A stretch of 32,000 nucleotides of DNA from Candidatus Scalindua sp. (GTDB lineage: Bacteria > Planctomycetota > Brocadiia > Brocadiales > Scalinduaceae): the NCBI GenBank assembly GCA_031316235.1, contig JALDRA010000001.1, forward strand, positions 2,160,001 to 2,192,000, written 5' to 3'. Below the pieces are notes generated by a model. That model was given only the letters and a program-made list of their open reading frames with translations. It ran no database searches and was not told where the DNA came from. Made by a program: the position numbers and the translations under genes. Of the stretch, positions 4,403 to 30,893 are shown one piece after another; the stretch's first letter is position 1, and the number at the start of each line of letters is the position of its first letter.

Positions 4403-4577
4403 TATACTAAAACCGATTTGATTTTAACTGTTTTCATGCTTTGCGTTCTTAGCGTCTTGGCGTGATATACTAAAACCAAAGCCTGGTTAATGGTATCCCC
4501 GGACAAAAAGCGCCGAAGACTTTACTCGCTCAATTTTATCTCGGATTGTATCCGAAAACCATTTCGAGATGAGTATA
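4403..4577 (+). repeat. family-1 repeat, rearranged copy D (duplicated left terminus, left hairpin lost)
   Basis: TATACTAAAACC occurs twice (4403 and 4466). From 4491 on it is collinear with the consensus (GGTATCCCCGGACAAAAAGCGCCGA...GAGATGAGTATA) and ends AGTATA at 4572-4577. Confidence 0.85.
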
Positions 4578-5623: not shown

Positions 5624-5736
5624 TCTACTCATTTTACAATGGTTTCCGGATAAAATCCGAGATAAAATTGAGCGAGTATACCAGCAGCCAGGATCTGGTT
5701 TCCGGTAAAACCGAAAACCAGATCGGTTTTAGTATA
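5624..5736 (-). repeat. family-1 repeat, copy F (inverted, net 26-bp internal deletion)
   Basis: The reverse complement is collinear with the consensus from TATACTAAAACCGATCTGG to the right-hand hairpin. The central GTCCTCGGCGCTTTTTGTCCGGGGA segment is missing. Confidence 0.8.
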
Positions 5737-8790: not shown

Positions 8791-10287
8791 TTATGACCAT
8801 TGCCTGGTCCCGGGTTTATCACATTCCACCATCTGATTTCCTTCATATCCATGATCTAAGCGTATACAGTTCATGTAGCTGTTAATCATGTCAACTGATT
8901 TCGGTGAATCATGTTCCCTCTGTTTGAGGAGAGAAAGCTCATGCATTGATCTCTCGAAGCCATTGGGGAAGTAAGAGATAAAGGCTGCGTAGTGTATTTC
9001 TGAAAAAAGATCTTTATTCTCCAGCCCGGCTGCCTTTTCAACACAGTTAAAACCCTCCTGCAGTAACATCTGCCCCCGCCAGCCATAGGTTATTGTGCCA
9101 ACTGCTGCGAGCACATTCGGTGAGTCCGGATGGTGCGTCTCAAGGGTTTCAAAGAAATCGACTGCCCGAAGAGTTTCCCGGTATTGCCACGCAAGCTGTA
9201 CATATCGGGCAAACATGGTACTGAATATTTCATCAGTATGTTTTCTTTCCAGGTAACCTTCAAGGATAGAGAGATGGGTATCGAGCTCTCTATCCTTTGC
9301 CGTGGAGACCTTACCGGCAAAAGCAGTATTATGAATTATGGGATAGGGGAAACGGGCAATCTCCTCACACCTTCTCTCACTCTCCTGTCCCGGTGGCCCG
9401 GTATGCAGGGGGCCAGAATTATTATCCCTTTTATCCTGTAACAGTTGAAGTTTTTTATCAATGTTTCCAGCCATGGCATAATGACCGTGCTCGCGGTAAA
9501 TCCTCGAAAGATTCTTATAGATATCATCTAAATGTGAGCGGTTATGTTTCTCTTTTTCTATAAGTAAATAGAACTGCTCTATGGCTTCCGGAAATCTTTC
9601 CGGCAGATACGCAAGATACGCTGCACGGCACAGGCGGGGGAAAAAGGCCTCTGTGTCCATTGAAACGGCTTCATCAATTTTTTTCAGGCCGTCTCTGAGA
9701 GTTTTCTCCGCATCCCAGCCACAGCTGATTACCCCCTTTGCCGTCAGGGTATAAGGTGATGACTGGTTTGTTTCATATTGGAGATCGTGGAAAAAATCTA
9801 TAGCCCGTTTCTCTTGCTCAAGATGCTTGCAGGCTGTTATATATTGTGAAAAGAGTCTGGGAAACACTCTCTTGTCAATATTCAGTTTCATACTGTTTTC
9901 AAGACGGCATAAGTCGTTTCCTGATACACTAAAACCGATTTGGTTTTCGGTTTTACCGCCCCCGCCAGAATGAGTATCGCCCGCCCGGCCTGTCAGCCAT
10001 TCGGACTGGGGCTGGCGAACGGCTGACAGGCCGGAAACCAGATCCTGGTTAATGGTATCAACAGACATACGCCGAGGACCATACTCGCTCAATTTTATCC
10101 GAAATCCAGTATGAGATGAGTATAACAGTGTGTCGACAGGAAAGCTTTCATCTGAGACTGAAGAAATTGTATCAGGTTCCTGCCCGGTCACTCCTTCTGC
10201 CGATTTGTCTGCAACAAAGAGTGCAGACATGACGAAAAGAGATAAAAGAAAAAATACGGTAACGGTAAATGGCTTTAAAAAAAACAT
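8791..10287 (-). CDS. secreted hypothetical protein with an internally duplicated ~140-aa helical module; carries a family-1 repeat in frame
   Basis: 498-aa uninterrupted ORF. GGAG RBS 8 nt upstream of the ATG at 10287. N-terminal signal peptide (MFFLKPFTVTVFFLLSLFVMSALFVA). Two paralogous modules (RAIDFFHDL...GW...AAYLAYLP and RAVDFFETL...GW...AAFISYFP). Confidence 0.6.
   Translation of the reverse strand: MFFLKPFTVTVFFLLSLFVMSALFVADKSAEGVTGQEPDTISSVSDESFPVDTLLYSSHTGFRIKLSEYGPRRMSVDTINQDLVSGLSAVRQPQSEWLTGRAGDTHSGGGGKTENQIGFSVSGNDLCRLENSMKLNIDKRVFPRLFSQYITACKHLEQEKRAIDFFHDLQYETNQSSPYTLTAKGVISCGWDAEKTLRDGLKKIDEAVSMDTEAFFPRLCRAAYLAYLPERFPEAIEQFYLLIEKEKHNRSHLDDIYKNLSRIYREHGHYAMAGNIDKKLQLLQDKRDNNSGPLHTGPPGQESERRCEEIARFPYPIIHNTAFAGKVSTAKDRELDTHLSILEGYLERKHTDEIFSTMFARYVQLAWQYRETLRAVDFFETLETHHPDSPNVLAAVGTITYGWRGQMLLQEGFNCVEKAAGLENKDLFSEIHYAAFISYFPNGFERSMHELSLLKQREHDSPKSVDMINSYMNCIRLDHGYEGNQMVECDKPGTRQWS
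9925..10124 (+). repeat. family-1 repeat, copy E (72-bp nested insertion, right hairpin half-deleted), embedded in a CDS
   Basis: TACACTAAAACCGATTTGGTTTTCGGTTTTACCG, then the insert, then CCGGAAACCAGATCCTGG...CCAGTATGAGATGAGTATA. It lies wholly inside ORF 8791-10287. Confidence 0.85.
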
Positions 10288-10354
10288 GCTTCACTCCTCT
10301 TTTAAAAATTCTCAACAGAATAGATAGTGTTTGAAAGAAAACTATCCATGTACT

Positions 10355-10420
10355 GTGTTACGGTAATAATTCCGCAATCCTCCGGGAGACGAGCATGCAC
10401 CGGTTACGGAATTACTGACA
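10355..10420 (+). repeat. family-2 ~66-bp repeat, copy 2b
   Basis: 46/66 identical to copy 2c by hand alignment, with exact blocks CGGTAATAATTCC and CCGGTTACGGAATTA at identical spacing. Confidence 0.65.
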
Positions 10421-10445
10421 TAATTCATAGTAAGTGGGAACAGGA

Positions 10446-10733
10446 TCAATTTTGCCGTATACAAGGGGGTAAATTTTTATAAATTGACGGCCATGAACGC
10501 TTTGCAAAGATGATGGGGATATCCTGCTCTTTTGCAGATCTCTTTACTACCGTTGCGAGATTATGATTTACATAGTCATGCAATACGATAATAATGTCCA
10601 TAGAGACTGGCAGACCCTTTTTTATGACGGTCTTATTCCTGCCGTCAATGTGCTTTACCTTATCGATACCAATCTTCTTAAGTTGTTTTGGAATAGATCC
10701 AAGGTGGTCTCCACCAACGATTAATGCTGACAT
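10446..10733 (-). CDS. DUF2325-like small protein
   Basis: 95-aa ORF with RBS GGAGG upstream of the ATG. The pattern LIVGGD...IDG...DIIIVLHDYVNHN...VKRSAKEQDIPIIF matches my recollection of DUF2325. Confidence 0.5.
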   Translation of the reverse strand: MSALIVGGDHLGSIPKQLKKIGIDKVKHIDGRNKTVIKKGLPVSMDIIIVLHDYVNHNLATVVKRSAKEQDIPIIFAKRSWPSIYKNLPPCIRQN

Positions 10734-11840: not shown

Positions 11841-11923
11841 ACTCATCTCCATACATTAGATTTTAGTGAAGGCCGACGTCTTGAGATTTCAAGACGCCGG
11901 AACAATGAGAAAGCAAAATACAA

Positions 11924-12100
11924 CTAGTTTTCACGCACGGTAAAGACCGTCATCATACCAGCCTCGATATGATCATTCACATGACAGTGGTACACCATAC
12001 GCCTGCAGCATCGGGCCTGAAAGTAAGTGATTTGGCGGCAGCAGGCAGAATTTCAGTAACGTCAATGCAGTTGCCATTATGCTTAAGCGTAGCCCCGTGT
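11924..12100 (-). pseudogene. C-terminal relic of a multicopper oxidase (5'-truncated, one frameshift)
   Basis: Minus-strand translation of 11924-12001 gives RMVYHCHVNDHIEAGMMTVFTVREN*, containing the MCO copper motif H-C-H-x3-H-x4-M. The adjacent frame upstream reads ...NGNCIDVTEILPAAAKSLTFRPDAAGVW. A single missing nucleotide after GVW joins the two frames. A TGA at 12101-12103 in the upstream frame ends the similarity. Confidence 0.7.
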
Positions 12101-12103
12101 CAC

Positions 12104-12124
12104 ATATTGAGAATGAGAATATAT
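12104..12124. promoter_or_regulatory. TTCTCATTCTCAAT motif, site 2 (on minus strand)
   Basis: ATATTGAGAATGAGAATATAT. Its reverse complement contains the exact 14-mer TTCTCATTCTCAAT seen at 5845-5858. It lies at the break point of the MCO relic. Confidence 0.25.
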
Positions 12125-12204
12125 CGCAATGCGCAGGTAAAAAAACCCTCCTTTCTTTTCGATTACACCGGTTGAGGCGGAAGAGAGTAGTAATAATAGG
12201 TTTA

Positions 12205-12225
12205 AATTGAGTTTCATTCTCAATT
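12205..12225. promoter_or_regulatory. TTCTCATTCTCAAT-related motif, site 3 (AATTGAGTTTCATTCTCAATT)
   Basis: 18/21 identical to site 1. Near-palindrome AATTGAG-n7-CTCAATT. Confidence 0.25.
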
Positions 12226-12287
12226 AGAACGGTAATATAGAGCAGAAGTGAATCTTTGTCAATTAAAAAAAAAATTTATTTACATGA

Positions 12288-12343
12288 TATGCTCATCTTA
12301 TAATGGTTTCGGATAAATCTAAAACCGAATCGGTTTTTGTATA
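12288..12343 (-). repeat. family-1 miniature copy G (56 bp, termini joined, core deleted)
   Basis: TATGCTCATCTTATAATGGTTTCGGATAAATC joined to TAAAACCGAATCGGTTTTTGTATA. Both halves align to the two ends of the reverse-complemented consensus. Confidence 0.6.
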
Positions 12344-12515
12344 ATAATGAAAGATATTACAACAACAATGAAAGATGTTACAACTACCTGGTAATTCAAA
12401 GAGCAGGTATCGAAAAAAAGAGGGGAAAAAAGGGGAACTAATTTGATAGAATGGTTGTATATAAAAGCTAAATATAAGTTTGGTTAAACAGGTAGGGTAT
12501 TTAAGGAGATAAAAA

Positions 12516-14273: not shown

Positions 14274-14412
14274 TATACTAAAACCGATCTGGTTTTCGGT
14301 TTTTCTGGAAACCAAATCCTGGTGAAGGTATCCCCGGACAAAAAGCGTCGAGGACTTTACGCGCTCAATTTTATCTCGGATTGTATCCGAAATCCAGTAT
14401 TAGATGAGTATA
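14274..14412 (+). repeat. family-1 repeat, full-length copy A (139 bp)
   Basis: TATACT...AGTATA. 8 differences from copy C over 139 nt by hand alignment. Confidence 0.9.
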
Positions 14413-14520
14413 TTAAAATAATTCAGTAACAATTTCTGATAACGATACAAGGTAAACCTTGAACGATCAAGGGGCACAACGTAAAGGGTCTTTAAACATT
14501 TGTGAGAATGCTGATGAGAT

Positions 14521-14601
14521 AGCCTTACTGCCGAAGAGTATTTCCATGGATTCTTATTGAATTCATTCAATATTTTTCAGCAGTAAGGCTTTTTTGTTTT
14601 T
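14521..14601 (+). terminator. strong intrinsic-terminator-like hairpin plus T-tract
   Basis: AGCCTTACTGCCGAA (14521-14535) pairs with TTCAGCAGTAAGGCT (14576-14590) at 14/15 positions. An inner stem ATTGAAT/ATTCAAT is present, followed by TTTTTGTTTTT (14591-14601). Confidence 0.55.
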
Positions 14602-14738: not shown

Positions 14739-17177
14739 ATGAATAGTATTAACGAATACAATAAAAATTTAAGATTTCTCTGGGTGTTGTTTTTTATCTT
14801 CCTCCTTGGAATTACGACTGCTTTTGCATTTGAATCTGATAAAGAATTATTCACTGAAGCACTCCAATCATCTGATACTTACGCTACCCGGGAGAAAGCG
14901 GAGCAAGACCCAACTATTGTCAGGAGCAGATATGTAAATGTTAATTTTACATTACTTGCTGAGGAAAAAGATGTTGCATCCAAATCTCAAGGGGATGATT
15001 CTTTAATCGTCTTGAACCTGTTTGATGAAGTCGCGGTAACAGCTATTAATGAACGTGTGGAAAGAAGATCTTCGAGTAGTTACACATGGATCGGGTGGAT
15101 TCCGGAAAGGGAAGTTGGTCAGGCGGTCCTGGCGGTAGAGGGTGGTCATATGGCCGGGAATATTACTATCGGGGGGAAAATGTATCAGGTTAGGAGTATA
15201 GGCAATGGTGTACACGCCATATACGAAATAGATCAGGGGGCCTTCTCTGATGAACACCCTCCGATTCCCGTAGAAGGGCTGGATGATTCCCATGAGGCTG
15301 ATCAAAGTTCACAGGAAGATTCTGCATCCACCATTGATATTATGGTGGTGTATACGGATGATGCAAGAGCTGCCGCTGGTGGGACATCCTCCATAAATGC
15401 GCAGATCCACCTCGCCATCAGCGAAACGAACCAATCCTATGCCAACAGTGGTATATTCCAGAGAGTGAGACTTGTCCATGCACAAGAGGTGTTTTACGCA
15501 GAAACAGGCGATATGTATACGGATTTAGACCGTATCACATCAGCGGGTGACAGCTGGTTGGATCAAATACATACATGGAGGAATACCTATTGTGCCGATA
15601 TGGTGAGTTTCTGGGTTGAAAATGGGGGAAGCTATTGCGGGCTTGCCTGGCTTATGGTTGATGTTTCAAACAACTTTGAATCTGCTGCCTTCAGTGTGGT
15701 AGATCGAGGCTGTGCAACCGGGAACTTTGTCTTTGGCCACGAACTAGGACACAATATGGGGGCCCATCATGACCGTGCCAATGCCAATGGGTATGGAGCA
15801 TACTCCTATTCATTCGGATATCAAGACCCTGGTAGAAATTGGAGGACGATCATGGCATACAATTGTCCCGGTGGTTGTATCAGGGTAAATAACTGGTCGA
15901 ACCCGGACGTTTTGAGAAATGGCATCCCAATGGGTGTACCTTCCGGACAATCTGATTCCGCAGACAACCGCAAAGCGCTCAACAACACAGCATTTACTGT
16001 TGCCAATTTCAGACAAGCGTGTGGCGGTGGCAGTACCCCTGAGATAACGAGTCCGGTGCCTGGTTCGATATTAAATTGTGGTGATCTGTTTTTTAACTGG
16101 TCAGCAAATGGCACCGCAGTAAGTGAGTGGCAGCTATATGTTGGAACCATGCAGGGTGGAAGAGATATTCTTGACAGTGGCAATTTGGGCAGCATTACAT
16201 CTCTCACCGTAAGTGGAATACCAGAAGATGGGAGCACGGTTCATGTGCGGCTTCGTTATAACTCAGGAGGTACGTGGCGGTTTGTTGATTATCAGTACAC
16301 GGCAGCCAGTAACTGCGGCGGTACACCTTCAATGACATCCCCCGCATCAGGTTCGACCTTGAATTGTACATCGCATCAGTTTTCCTGGACCAACCCTAAT
16401 GGTTCCACAGCATTCTGGGTGTATGCGGGGAGCAGTAGAGGTGCATACGATTATTACAACAGCCGCAATATTGGAACGGCAACGAGTCATGCGGTCACCG
16501 GACTGCCGTCGGATGGCAGCACAGTGTACGTCAGGCTGTATTATTACAAGAACGGCTGGAAAAAAGAGGATTACACCTATAAGGCGTGTACTGGCGGAGG
16601 CGGAGGAACGGCACCTTCAGTGACATCCCCCGCATCAGGTTCGACTTTGAATTGTACATCGCATCAGTTTTCCTGGACCAACCCTGATGGTTCCACAGCA
16701 TTCTGGGTGTATGCAGGGAGCAGTAGAGGTGCATACGATCATTACAACAGCCGTAATATTGGAACAGTAACGAGTCATACGGTCACCGGACTGCCGTCGG
16801 ATGGCAGCACAGTGTACGTCAGGCTGTATTATTACAAGAACGGCTGGAAAAAAGAGGATTACATCTATAAGGCTTGTACCGACGGAGGCGGAGGAACGAC
16901 ACCTTCAGTGACATCCCCCGCATCAGGTTCGACCTTGAATTGTACATCGCATCAGTTTTCCTGGACCAACCCTGATGGTTCCACAGCATTCTGGATGTAT
17001 GCGGGGAGCAGTAGAGGTGCATACGATTATTACAACAGCCGTAATATTGGAACAGTAACGAGTCATACGGTCACCGGACTGCCATCGGATGGCAGCATAG
17101 TGTACATCAGGCTGTATTCCTACAAGAACGGCTGGAAAAAAGAGGATTATACCTATAAGGCGTGTACTGGCGGATGA
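14739..17177 (+). CDS. secreted metzincin (reprolysin/M12B-like) zinc metalloprotease with four C-terminal ~96-aa Cys-bracketed domains
   Basis: Signal peptide (LWVLFFIFLLGITTAFA). Zinc motif HELGHNMGAHHD (15738-15773, HExxHxxGxxH) and a downstream Met-turn candidate (RTIMAY). Four repeats of the SP.SGS.LNC...W.YAG...G..D...S...G....V.GLP.DGS.VY.RL...K..W...DY.Y.AC type follow. Confidence 0.8.
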   Translation: MNSINEYNKNLRFLWVLFFIFLLGITTAFAFESDKELFTEALQSSDTYATREKAEQDPTIVRSRYVNVNFTLLAEEKDVASKSQGDDSLIVLNLFDEVAVTAINERVERRSSSSYTWIGWIPEREVGQAVLAVEGGHMAGNITIGGKMYQVRSIGNGVHAIYEIDQGAFSDEHPPIPVEGLDDSHEADQSSQEDSASTIDIMVVYTDDARAAAGGTSSINAQIHLAISETNQSYANSGIFQRVRLVHAQEVFYAETGDMYTDLDRITSAGDSWLDQIHTWRNTYCADMVSFWVENGGSYCGLAWLMVDVSNNFESAAFSVVDRGCATGNFVFGHELGHNMGAHHDRANANGYGAYSYSFGYQDPGRNWRTIMAYNCPGGCIRVNNWSNPDVLRNGIPMGVPSGQSDSADNRKALNNTAFTVANFRQACGGGSTPEITSPVPGSILNCGDLFFNWSANGTAVSEWQLYVGTMQGGRDILDSGNLGSITSLTVSGIPEDGSTVHVRLRYNSGGTWRFVDYQYTAASNCGGTPSMTSPASGSTLNCTSHQFSWTNPNGSTAFWVYAGSSRGAYDYYNSRNIGTATSHAVTGLPSDGSTVYVRLYYYKNGWKKEDYTYKACTGGGGGTAPSVTSPASGSTLNCTSHQFSWTNPDGSTAFWVYAGSSRGAYDHYNSRNIGTVTSHTVTGLPSDGSTVYVRLYYYKNGWKKEDYIYKACTDGGGGTTPSVTSPASGSTLNCTSHQFSWTNPDGSTAFWMYAGSSRGAYDYYNSRNIGTVTSHTVTGLPSDGSIVYIRLYSYKNGWKKEDYTYKACTGG
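16323..17177 (+). repeat. three near-identical 288-bp tandem coding repeats
   Basis: ACATCCCCCGCATCAGGTTCGAC recurs at 16335, 16623 and 16911, a period of exactly 288 nt. The units differ by 7-8 aa per 96 aa. Confidence 0.9.
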
Positions 17178-17264
17178 AAAGAATTTCAGTATGCCCCATC
17201 GCACAGTGAGACCGACAGCTTGATCTTTCATTTCAGTGGATGTTTACACCCCTCCCCTTCATCA

Positions 17265-20510: not shown

Positions 20511-20649
20511 TATACTAAAACCGATTTGGTTTTCGGTCTTACCGGAAACCAAATCATGGTGAAGGTATCCCCGGACAAAAAGTGCCGAGGACTTTACTCG
20601 CTCAATTTTATCTCGGATTTTATCCGAAATCCAGTATGAGATGAGTATA
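20511..20649 (+). repeat. family-1 repeat, full-length copy B (139 bp)
   Basis: 6 differences from copy C over 139 nt. Positions 74-139 are identical to copy C. Confidence 0.9.
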
Positions 20650-22600: not shown

Positions 22601-22662
22601 TGGATGAGACAAGTCATTATACTCGTACTGGTCTGTGACCGGGCGGAAACTTTTCACCTATG

Positions 22663-22728
22663 GTGCTGCGGTAATAATTCCATACTCCTGAGATACAAGA
22701 GTACGCTCCGGTTACGGAATTAACACGC
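22663..22728 (+). repeat. family-2 ~66-bp repeat, copy 2c
   Basis: See copy 2b. It also shares an exact 14-mer with the reverse complement of 2a. Confidence 0.65.
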
Positions 22729-29209: not shown

Positions 29210-29348
29210 TATACTAAAACAGATCTGGTTTTCGGTTTTACCGGAAACCAGATCCTGGTGAAGGTATCCCCGGACAAAAAGCGCCGAGGACTTTACTCGC
29301 TCAATTTTATCTCGGATTTTATCCGAAATCCAGTATGAGATGAGTATA
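29210..29348 (+). repeat. family-1 repeat, full-length copy C (139 bp)
   Basis: TATACTAAAACAGATCTGG...GAGATGAGTATA. The last base is immediately adjacent to the metG stop codon (29349-29351). Confidence 0.9.
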
Positions 29349-30893
29349 TTATAAGTTTTCCACCTTTGGGAACAGAGGAATTCCCTTTTGAACTTTTGTT
29401 TCCGGTTTCATACCACCCCATGCAACACCTTCGTAAGTAAGCTCATCATCTCCTTTCAAACCTAACTGTTTTTGTATCTCGATTGCCTTATTCGGCATAA
29501 AGGGAAAGATGAACAATGAAATTATCCTGATAGCCTCTAGCAGGTTATAGAGAACAGCATGTAAATTGTCCCTGGTATCAGGATCTTTTGCCAAAACCCA
29601 TGGCTTTGAAACCTCCACATATTTATTGACGAACCTGATATATTCCCAGATGCTCTCTAACGCCCGGCTGAATTGCAGGTTTTTCATTGAAAATTCTACC
29701 TCTTCATTGAGTGTTTGTAACTTTTCTTTCAATTCCAGACCCTCAAATGCCTTCCTTTTCGGTTCCGGAACAGTTCCGTTACAGTATTTCTCAATCATGG
29801 TTAAGGCTCTATGAAGAAGATTTCCCAAATCATTTGCCAGATCATTATTAATTCTGTTTGCAAGGGCACTGGTAGAAAAATTGCCGTCAAGACCAAATGG
29901 TACCTCTCTTAATAAAAAATATCTATACTCGTCTACTCCGTACCTATCTATTATCTTAATAGGATCTATTGCATTGCCTAAAGATTTTGAAATCTTCTGT
30001 CCTTCTAATGTCCACCATCCATGAGCAAAAATTTGATACGGTATTTCTATGCCTAACGACAGCAGCATTGCAGGCCATACAACACCATGGAACCACAGGA
30101 TCTCCTTTCCTATTATCTGCACATCTGCCGGCCAATATTTCTTGAAGATCTCGGAGGCACTGGTATATTCAAGAGCTGTTATGTAATTGAATAGTGCATC
30201 AACCCAGACATAAATAGTGTGGCTTGAATCCATTGGAACGGGAATACCCCATTCAACAGCAGCCCTGCTCACACTGATATCGTCTAAACCTTTTACGACC
30301 CTTTTGTGTAGTTCGTTTCTCCGGGATTCAGGTTTTATGAAATCGGGATGTTCTTCAAGGTATTGTAAAAGGATTTTTTGAAATTTAGACAGCCTGAAAA
30401 AATAATTTTTCTCCCTCAGTTTTTCCACTGAGCGATGGCATTCCGGGCAATTCCCGGAAATCAGCTGCATATCTGTCCAAAAACTTTCACATGGAACACA
30501 ATACCACCCTTCATATTCTCCTAAATAAATATCGCCATTTTCGAAAAGTTTTTTACATATGCTTTCAACCTGCCTGATGTGACGCTCCTCAGAGGTCCTT
30601 ATGAAGTCAGAGTGTAAAATATTACAGACTTCCCATAAGTGTTTGAAGACTTTTACCGTTCTGTCCGCTAACTCAACTGGCTTTTCATTATTTTCCCGGG
30701 CAGCTTTCTCTATCTTTTGTCCATGTTCGTCTGTTCCGGTCAGGAAAAATACGTCATAACCCCTCATCCTCTTGTATCTCGCTAATACATCAGCAGCTAT
30801 AGTCGTGTACGAATGGCCAATATGAGGTTTGTCATTAACATAATAAATCGGTGTTGTTACATAAAAGGTTTTTTTATTCACATTCTTTCCCAC
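29349..30893 (-). CDS. metG: methionine--tRNA ligase (short form without C-terminal tRNA-binding domain)
   Basis: 514 aa. TTPIYYVNDKPHIGH (HIGH), KISKSLGN (KMSKS), zinc knuckle CVPCESFW...CPECHR. GTG start. Confidence 0.95.
   Translation of the reverse strand: MGKNVNKKTFYVTTPIYYVNDKPHIGHSYTTIAADVLARYKRMRGYDVFFLTGTDEHGQKIEKAARENNEKPVELADRTVKVFKHLWEVCNILHSDFIRTSEERHIRQVESICKKLFENGDIYLGEYEGWYCVPCESFWTDMQLISGNCPECHRSVEKLREKNYFFRLSKFQKILLQYLEEHPDFIKPESRRNELHKRVVKGLDDISVSRAAVEWGIPVPMDSSHTIYVWVDALFNYITALEYTSASEIFKKYWPADVQIIGKEILWFHGVVWPAMLLSLGIEIPYQIFAHGWWTLEGQKISKSLGNAIDPIKIIDRYGVDEYRYFLLREVPFGLDGNFSTSALANRINNDLANDLGNLLHRALTMIEKYCNGTVPEPKRKAFEGLELKEKLQTLNEEVEFSMKNLQFSRALESIWEYIRFVNKYVEVSKPWVLAKDPDTRDNLHAVLYNLLEAIRIISLFIFPFMPNKAIEIQKQLGLKGDDELTYEGVAWGGMKPETKVQKGIPLFPKVENL

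Follow-up and report, generated by a model that had tools for sequence, protein, structure and literature searches.

We report a miniature inverted-repeat transposable element (MITE) that lies inside a protein-coding gene of Candidatus Scalindua sp. The gene was found in a 32,000-nucleotide stretch of DNA, which we call the window and from whose position 1 all coordinates are counted, and the element, designated copy E, supplies residues 55-121 of the encoded protein of 498 amino acids. We consider it probable (roughly 0.8) that the MITE inserted in frame behind a signal peptide, that it is read through by the ribosome and that the protein tolerates it. The initial annotation of this DNA, made from the sequence alone, had placed the repeat wholly within an uninterrupted open reading frame (ORF) at about these residues. 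The ORF was confirmed to contain no stop codon, and alignment and translation fix the segment at L55 (TTA) through V121 (GTA), with the peptide LYSSHTGFRIKLSEYGPRRMSVDTINQDLVSGLSAVRQPQSEWLTGRAGDTHSGGGGKTENQIGFSV. The suggestion that this resembles the in-frame residence of Rickettsia palindromic elements (RPEs), in an unrelated lineage, is now backed by an empty site, an in-frame insertion in a sister genome, selection on the body of the protein and a second case at another locus.

The repeat belongs to a family in which all copies end in TA/TACT...AGTA/TA, while the sequences flanking these ends vary. The terminal inverted repeats are imperfect and about 26 bp long (TATACTAAAACCGATTTGGTTTTCGG versus TATACTCATCTCATAATGGTTTTCGG, the reverse complement of the other end); approximately 18 of the 26 positions agree, among them those of the outer TATACT and of the inner TGGTTTTCGG. 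Copies of 100-200 nt carry no transposase gene, and their only open frames correspond to peptides of 36-66 amino acids. They fall into size classes of 113, 139-140, 143, approximately 166 and 196 nt, which reflects a modular build, i.e. a 113-nt core with the optional GC-rich hairpin modules M1, M2 and M3. M1 (about 30 nt) sits in the loop of the first hairpin and M2 (26-27 nt) has a loop of variable length. The modules are essentially restricted to MITE copies; M1, for example, was found 26 times inside such copies and 4 times outside. A canonical copy is a chain of hairpins (fold z approximately -4.4, calculated for DNA).

The distribution of the family was investigated with a pattern for the 3' arm, scanned against one genome per species for 185,579 species. 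It gave at least 120 loci, and the matches listed all come from assemblies of Scalindua or Scalinduaceae and from one metagenome-assembled genome (MAG) labelled 'Planctomycetota', the former being SCAELEC01 (Candidatus Scalindua sp.), RBC_AMX3 (Scalindua sp.) and the Scalinduaceae MAG CBDCUS01. Copies C, D and F of the window were used to build an nhmmer model, which in about 1 Mb of sequence gave 194 hits with 138 distinct full-length copies. In the window itself there is approximately one copy per 5 kb.

Comparison of filled and empty sites shows how the element enters DNA. Within the gene the filled site reads CTGT-TA-[TACTC...TAGTG]-TA-TCAGGAAAC, and the empty site of Scalindua sp. AMX11 reads CCGT-TA-CCTGAAAAC. 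For copy C the filled site is GCACG TA[TACT...AGTA]TA TTAAAA and the empty site is GCACT TA TTAAAA, the latter on the 96%-identical sister contig ERZ25039603:contig_16601 (locus L001). A third filled/empty pair (L062 versus L127) is too diverged for an exact statement and is compatible with duplication of TA. We see the same mobility in presence and absence between the 96%-identical genomes: copy C is missing from L001, and the copy at L001 8321-8432 is missing from the window. Because the target TA is duplicated in both of the clear comparisons, the repeat family is a recently active MITE. TA duplication is the hallmark of IS630/Tc1-mariner-type transposition, and a (DDE_3-type) transposase of this superfamily may mobilise the family.

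The whole window was searched against Rfam at gathering thresholds and positions 9800-10500 at permissive thresholds, and no Rfam family matched the repeat; the permissive search returned only sub-threshold matches to generic-hairpin miRNAs. The literature that was searched held no description of MITEs in Scalindua or in anammox bacteria. As far as we could check, this Scalindua-specific, modular, TA-duplicating family has not been described before.

Copy E is an unusual member of the family. It is composed of the core, an expanded M1 and a diverged M2, minus 12 nt, and the nhmmer model recognises it in two parts (9926-9958 and 10030-10124). The expanded M1 holds an inverted M1 duplicate, forms a near-perfect hairpin of about 20 bp at 9985-10034 and encodes ...GLSAVRQPQSEWLTGRAGDTHSGGGG... 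in the protein. In the frame of the gene, the M2 module of other copies reads GAG TAA AGT and that of copy E reads GAG TAT GGT, i.e. the stop codon typical of the family has been lost. The initial annotation described the repeat as AT-rich, but with its nested GC-rich module included copy E is not notably so. The annotation also regarded the long stop-free run as unlikely to arise by chance. In composition-matched shuffles of the 200-nt element 4.3% were stop-free in the frame of the gene, which is suggestive and not decisive: the open frame alone is only mildly improbable, and the strength of the case is comparative. Predicted tryptic peptides across the insert are LSEYGPR, MSVDTINQDLVSGLSAVR, QPQSEWLTGR, AGDTHSGGGGK and TENQIGFSVSGNDLCR.

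The host protein consists of a predicted signal peptide, a disordered linker that holds the insert and two all-helical, TPR-like modules, as judged from the sequence and from an AlphaFold2 model computed with the orthologue alignment. Its start codon, ATG 10287, is preceded at a distance of 7 nt by the ribosome-binding site GAGGAG (10294-10299). The later in-frame ATGs at codons 20, 74 and 133 (10230, 10068 and 9891, respectively) have no purine-rich motif upstream, and both statements of the initial annotation, i.e. a ribosome-binding site before 10287 and none before 9891, were borne out. By eye, the signal peptide is composed of MFFLK, about 20 hydrophobic residues (PFTVTVFFLLSLFVMSALFV) and a polar ADKSAEG; the cleavage site is not canonical. 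The model places a helix at residues 7-25, gives residues 1-119 as unstructured (pLDDT below 50) and the two helical modules at 122-289 and 329-478 (pLDDT approximately 85-97). The folded body thus begins at residue 122, so the segment does lie between the signal peptide and the first folded module, as had been proposed, and the structure prediction suggested in the initial annotation agrees with a disordered linker. In view of the low pLDDT, the insert sits in a disordered tether, where extra residues would do the least harm.

No Pfam family matched the host protein, and when the model was compared with the PDB by Foldseek, TPR superhelices were matched only weakly, at a best E of 2.5e-3. The 21 database homologues are all from Scalindua or Planctomycetota, some of them named TPR repeat protein; the gene is confined to the Scalindua lineage. 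Just upstream of minus-strand genes, the MITE host gene among them, lie the two copies of a 76-nt direct repeat (10339-10414 and 22647-22722, 74% identical). It has no Rfam match and may represent either a regulatory sequence common to these genes or a further family of small repeats.

Twelve orthologues of 402-451 amino acids (typically 431) were aligned. In all 12 the same N-terminal signal-peptide pattern is joined to the body by a short, poorly conserved linker, and none of the 12 contains the 67-residue segment; in other words, what they lack is exactly the insert. The gene order around the locus is conserved as well (two response regulators, DUF2325, the host gene, a convergent feoB and a HAD hydrolase). 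The shared signal peptide and the synteny refute the idea, considered in the initial annotation, that the signal peptide was taken from a different, disrupted gene.

The sister contig, which is collinear with the window at 92-97% DNA identity, encodes an orthologue (P0001, 479 amino acids) with a 48-residue version of the insert at the same site and in the same orientation. Its MITE is of the plain 143-nt class (core and M1), like copies at the loci L034 and L072. Three separate regions distinguish the two in-gene copies, with length differences of 45, 24 and 12 nt. Each of these is a multiple of three, an outcome with a chance of about 1/27 under neutrality. The net addition is 198 nt in the window and 141 nt in the sister. 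The common site, orientation and subfamily signatures favour a single ancestral insertion. Independent acquisition at the same TA was considered and is less parsimonious, given that the site, the orientation and the signatures CCTGGTTAATGG and AATCCAGTATGAG are all shared. Judging from the sequences compared, the insertion would postdate the split from the lineages of AMX11 and of the insert-free orthologue P0002 (locus L005).

The body of the protein (377 codons) has a dN/dS of 0.24 between the two insert-bearing genomes, calculated from 90 substitutions, and pairs of insert-free genes give 0.21-0.33. Purifying selection has therefore acted on the protein ever since the insertion. In the insert-free orthologues, whose translation starts upstream of this codon, M133 hardly varies, which identifies it as an internal residue and not as a start codon. 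We note that the N-terminal 54 codons of P0002 (L005 438-600 versus window 10126-10287) have a dS of 0.79, compared with 0.27 for the body, and resemble the AMX11 type. This pattern suggests a mosaic, recombinant history of the gene at the host locus.

The gene reads the element in the reverse complement at offset 2, and this frame was examined across the family. In the 113-nt class 32 of 47 copies are open in this frame and in the 143-nt class 7 of 9, compared with only 3 of 57 in the 139-nt class and 2 of 19 in the approximately 166-nt class. The commonest lengths within the first two classes, 113 and 143 nt, add 111 and 141 nt net, i.e. multiples of three. The initial annotation had called the element intrinsically translatable, which is appropriate for these two classes and fails for the 139-nt class. 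Likewise, its claim that the minus-strand frame is open in copies B, C and F stands for copy B alone; copies C, D and F have a TAA in the frame of the gene, and in D and F it is another minus-strand frame that is open. One open frame of the six in a 113-nt sequence is not remarkable (about 7% per frame).

Among the 138 full copies, only those of the host locus and its L001 orthologue lie deep inside a long ORF. A search for further ORFs with in-frame copies, which the initial annotation had proposed, yielded a second case, so that in-frame residence is seen at 2 independent loci among the 138 copies. The second copy, of the 113-nt form and in the same orientation and frame, is at L062 3805-3917 (Scalinduaceae MAG CBDCUS010000014.1, approximately 2,419,805-2,419,917). 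It splits the signal region of P0022, a 207-residue ChrB_C protein (PF09828), as MRRTLLICIYFIFICQ[LYSSDNGFRIKSDIKLNEYNCNQDLVSSKTEYQIG]FSIFINSCREAHA..., parting the hydrophobic core from an ...AHA cleavage-like motif; export of P0022 may be altered as a result. Its AMX11 orthologue (P0023, 172 amino acids) and homologues of about 165-170 amino acids have no MITE insert. Another candidate, at L025, has a long open frame; it was rejected, as the real start and the signal peptide come after the element.

The peptide encoded by the MITE, YSS.NGFRIKSEIKLSEY..QDLVS.KTENQIGFSI, is well conserved among copies. A profile of ten such translations matched 29 short ORFs among public proteins (40-111 amino acids, P0142-P0170). 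These 'hypothetical proteins' are translations of intergenic MITE copies and probably gene-calling artefacts to which the open frame of the element gives rise. The profile missed the known positives P0001 and P0022, and it is thus no guide to the absence of long fusion proteins.

These observations fit the following course of events. A non-autonomous MITE of the Scalindua-specific family would have inserted at a TA in the poorly conserved linker behind the signal peptide, in the common ancestor of the window genome and of the sister contig. The inserted form was probably of the 143-nt class. A member of this class contributes 141 nt, or 47 codons, and in most cases has no stop in the frame concerned, so that the gene could have survived as an in-frame fusion. 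Translation would still start at the original ATG 10287, cross the element as an unstructured spacer of 67 residues in the window protein and enter the folded body. Later changes of the element, namely the expansion of M1, the presence or absence of M2 with the change of TAA to TAT, and the 12-nt deletion, would have been kept only where the frame was preserved. Export of the insert-bearing protein is likely on this account, and the insert would be a tolerated passenger rather than a functional gain.

Several points limit this account. Translation through the element is inferred from the in-frame indels, the lost stop codon, the selection on the body, M133 and the predicted disorder. The signal peptide was judged by eye only. 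The 55 N-terminal codons have a dN/dS of 0.95 between the insert-bearing genes, from only 8 differences, which are too few to show selection on the signal peptide after the insertion. Copy E has M2 and the sister copy does not, and an ancestral form with M2 would have carried a stop codon and a frameshift. The coding region also contains the very stable hairpin of copy E (-83.9 kcal/mol for the 200-nt RNA, z = -5.0), which might hinder translation. As to the family, no autonomous partner was found in the approximately 1 Mb of sequence, where paired ends 0.4-4 kb apart, solitary 5' ends and neighbouring ORFs were inspected.

The high N-terminal dN/dS is one point in favour of an alternative in which the insertion uncoupled the N-terminus: the protein would now start inside, at ATG 9891 (codon 133) or ATG 10068 (codon 74), without a signal peptide, and 9892-10287 would be a remnant that has not yet decayed. 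The shuffles, of which about 4% are stop-free, show that an open element is not astronomically unlikely, and across the insertion junction, at 10136-10108, lies a weak sigma-70-like match (9/12). Shuffled sequences yield at least as many such matches, though, and the same holds for a scan for promoters and terminators around the host gene. Neither internal ATG is preceded by a Shine-Dalgarno-like sequence, and M133 is a conserved internal residue in orthologues that do have the signal peptide. Further points against it are the three independent length differences, each divisible by three, the removal of the TAA typical of the family, and the 121 and 102 stop-free codons kept upstream of the body in the two lineages. 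All orthologues are of the exported type, and purifying selection on the body would be odd for a protein that had suddenly become cytoplasmic. We regard an internal start as unlikely. Still less probable, and the least likely of the readings considered, is a decaying pseudogene in the window lineage whose intactness is a coincidence of recency. The gene region of the window does share only about 92% nucleotide identity with that of L001, compared with 96-98% for the genes on either side. Against decay stand the dN/dS of the body, the lack of stops and frameshifts in both lineages and the fact that every indel is in frame.

Another possibility is that the insert has acquired a selected function, either as a spacer (tether or linker) or as an mRNA hairpin that causes a pause after the signal peptide has emerged, and that the open frame is itself selected, as has been proposed for RPEs. 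In its favour are two independent in-frame insertions that share one frame and immediately follow the hydrophobic core of a signal peptide, the good conservation of the encoded peptide from copy to copy, a dN/dS of 0.58 (9 differences) for the element part of the gene and the high stability of the hairpin (z = -5). Conservation of the peptide, however, is explained by the DNA-level conservation of a young family. Where a class adds a multiple of three nucleotides net, only the offset-2 frame is commonly open, and survivorship alone therefore predicts that both events share one frame and orientation; a frame that is open by chance in about 7% of cases in 113 nt is not unusual. Furthermore, just 2 of the 138 copies are intragenic, the segment is predicted to be disordered and most orthologues function without it. 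Such exaptation seems improbable to us, more so than an internal start. A further view is that the MITE family is a recurrent donor of translated spacer peptides, with the zone behind signal-peptide cores preferred or preferentially tolerated as a target. The 113- and 143-nt forms would then be tuned to be harmless in one orientation and frame, as each adds a multiple of three nucleotides net and has an antisense frame free of stops. We hold this to be doubtful. If true, the element would remodel N-terminal tethers across the Scalindua secretome; in a related scenario the stable hairpin within the ORF would act as a translational pause that aids export.

Parallels to in-frame insertion of a MITE with subsequent tolerance are known. 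RPE-1 and its relatives are, according to the summary of Ogata et al. (2000) given in PMC10969869, short palindromic multi-copy repeats that reside in frame within genes, and by the same account nearly half of the R. conorii copies lie in ORFs. The 2024 review regards in-frame MITE fusions as 'not unusual' and RPEs as exceptional only in their frequency, and it lists intragenic ERIC, pneumococcal BOX and Anabaena MITEs as in-frame fusions (PMC10969869). Similar cases are described for QMITE1/2 of Coxiella (PMC5896051).

The Scalindua element resembles RPEs as a palindromic multi-copy repeat of 100-200 nt (compare the fold z values of copy E and of the canonical copy) that adds a few dozen residues in frame, outside the folded core, to a host protein that survives, and in the conservation of the encoded peptide among copies. 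It differs in belonging to anammox Planctomycetota and not to Rickettsiales, in its apparently unrelated sequence, in its clear TA duplication and terminal inverted repeats, and in the rarity of in-gene residence, with only some size classes open. The host lineage among the matches listed and the lack of an Rfam match set it apart from RPE families 1-10. In other words, the element is RPE-like in behaviour and is not an RPE. With QMITE, ERIC, BOX and the Anabaena MITEs it shares a mostly intergenic location, richness in hairpins and occasional in-frame copies that lengthen proteins. Unlike those cases, it concerns a new host lineage and a new element family, and the element has entered the interior of the protein, where it separates the signal peptide from the mature domain. 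The case is moreover backed by a shared orthologous insertion, frame-preserving indels and dN/dS values, a level of evidence that most published cases do not have.

Structurally, the element is closest to TA-duplicating MITEs such as the Correia elements of Neisseria. These and other MITEs derived from IS630/Tc1-mariner elements duplicate TA, have inverted repeats of about 26 bp that start with TATA, measure 100-160 nt in discrete size classes that arise through internal modules or deletions, and occur in high copy number, mostly between and near genes. The likeness is one of description, with no sequence relationship apparent. Unlike Correia elements, the present family is restricted, among the matches listed, to the Scalindua lineage and has its modular GC-rich hairpins (M1-M3) in stem-loops in place of a single internal deletion; the approximately 1 Mb of sequence yielded no cognate transposase for it.

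Table 1. Positions of the host gene, the in-gene element and the other MITE copies in the window.
Feature	Position	Strand	Basis
Host gene	8791..10287	-	498-aa uninterrupted ORF, ATG start
N-terminal signal peptide (predicted), ~residues 1-26	10210..10287	-	by eye, orthologue pattern, model helix
MITE copy E, 200 nt including both TA copies, encodes residues 55-121	9925..10124	+ (antisense to gene)	family alignment, nhmmer, translation, absence in orthologues
TA, one target-site duplication copy	9925..9926	.	filled vs empty site
TA, other target-site duplication copy	10123..10124	.	filled vs empty site
Expanded GC-rich M1 module, 75 nt (~30 nt in other copies)	9958..10032	+	family alignment
Diverged M2 module, 24 nt	10059..10082	+	family alignment
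MITE copy A, 175 nt, variant 5' half, intergenic	4403-4577	+	family alignment/nhmmer
MITE copy B, 113-nt core form, intergenic, upstream of feoB	5624-5736	- (inverted)	family alignment/nhmmer
MITE copy C, 139 nt	14274-14412	+	nhmmer; empty site in L001
MITE copy D, 139 nt, intergenic	20511-20649	+	nhmmer
MITE copy F, 139 nt	29210-29348	+	nhmmer

Five further copies were found in the window (Table 1). Copy B is also present at the orthologous place in AMX11 (L002 14061-14172). Copy F takes up all of the space between two minus-strand ORFs, with one end directly next to the stop codon (29349-29351) of ORF 29349-30893. Downstream of copy C, at a distance of 29 nt, is a c-di-GMP-I riboswitch (14441-14535, scored at 43.2 bits with Rfam), which precedes an ORF of 812 amino acids (14739-17177); the absence of copy C from the 96%-identical L001 points to a recent insertion at the promoter or leader of the riboswitch. 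The ORF itself contains three tandem 288-nt units (92-95% identical, 16324-17187), i.e. a repeated module of 96 amino acids, and its L001 orthologue has reprolysin-type metalloprotease domains.

Some copies are associated with other elements. In Scalindua sp. RBC_AMX3 (L077 4440-6277) a 1.7-kb insert divides a MITE copy at model position 70. This copy was considered as a possible parent element and was rejected: the insert encodes an unrelated IS110-family transposase (PF01548 and PF02371) with an interrupted reading frame, so that it is a secondary insertion. The split copy suggests that IS110-type elements target the MITE hairpins. At L072 (approximately 580-2605, Scalinduaceae MAG) a truncated MITE (model 1-101) lies beside an ORF of 419 amino acids with a reverse-transcriptase-like N-terminus, and a group II intron may have inserted into the MITE. 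Finally, L001 3136-8431 is a 5.3-kb block with genes for AAA_15/AAA_21 ATPase, SLFN/AlbA_2-HATPase_c_4 and RHH proteins, resembling a defence island. Only about 0.5 kb (11858-12366) lies opposite this block in the window, and the MITE at L001 8321-8432 is found at its border.

In-frame residence thus recurs in this MITE family but is rare, and it is already documented elsewhere. The accepted view of how MITEs work does not change, and specialists may find the case neat rather than surprising. It is nevertheless a well-documented example of selfish DNA absorbed into a functional protein outside obligate intracellular bacteria, in a lineage of free-living, environmentally important anammox bacteria. 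For these organisms the dense MITE family will confuse gene calling, as the 29 spurious small ORFs that are already public illustrate, and copies that adjoin regulatory elements, including the c-di-GMP riboswitch, may matter for gene regulation and for strain typing.

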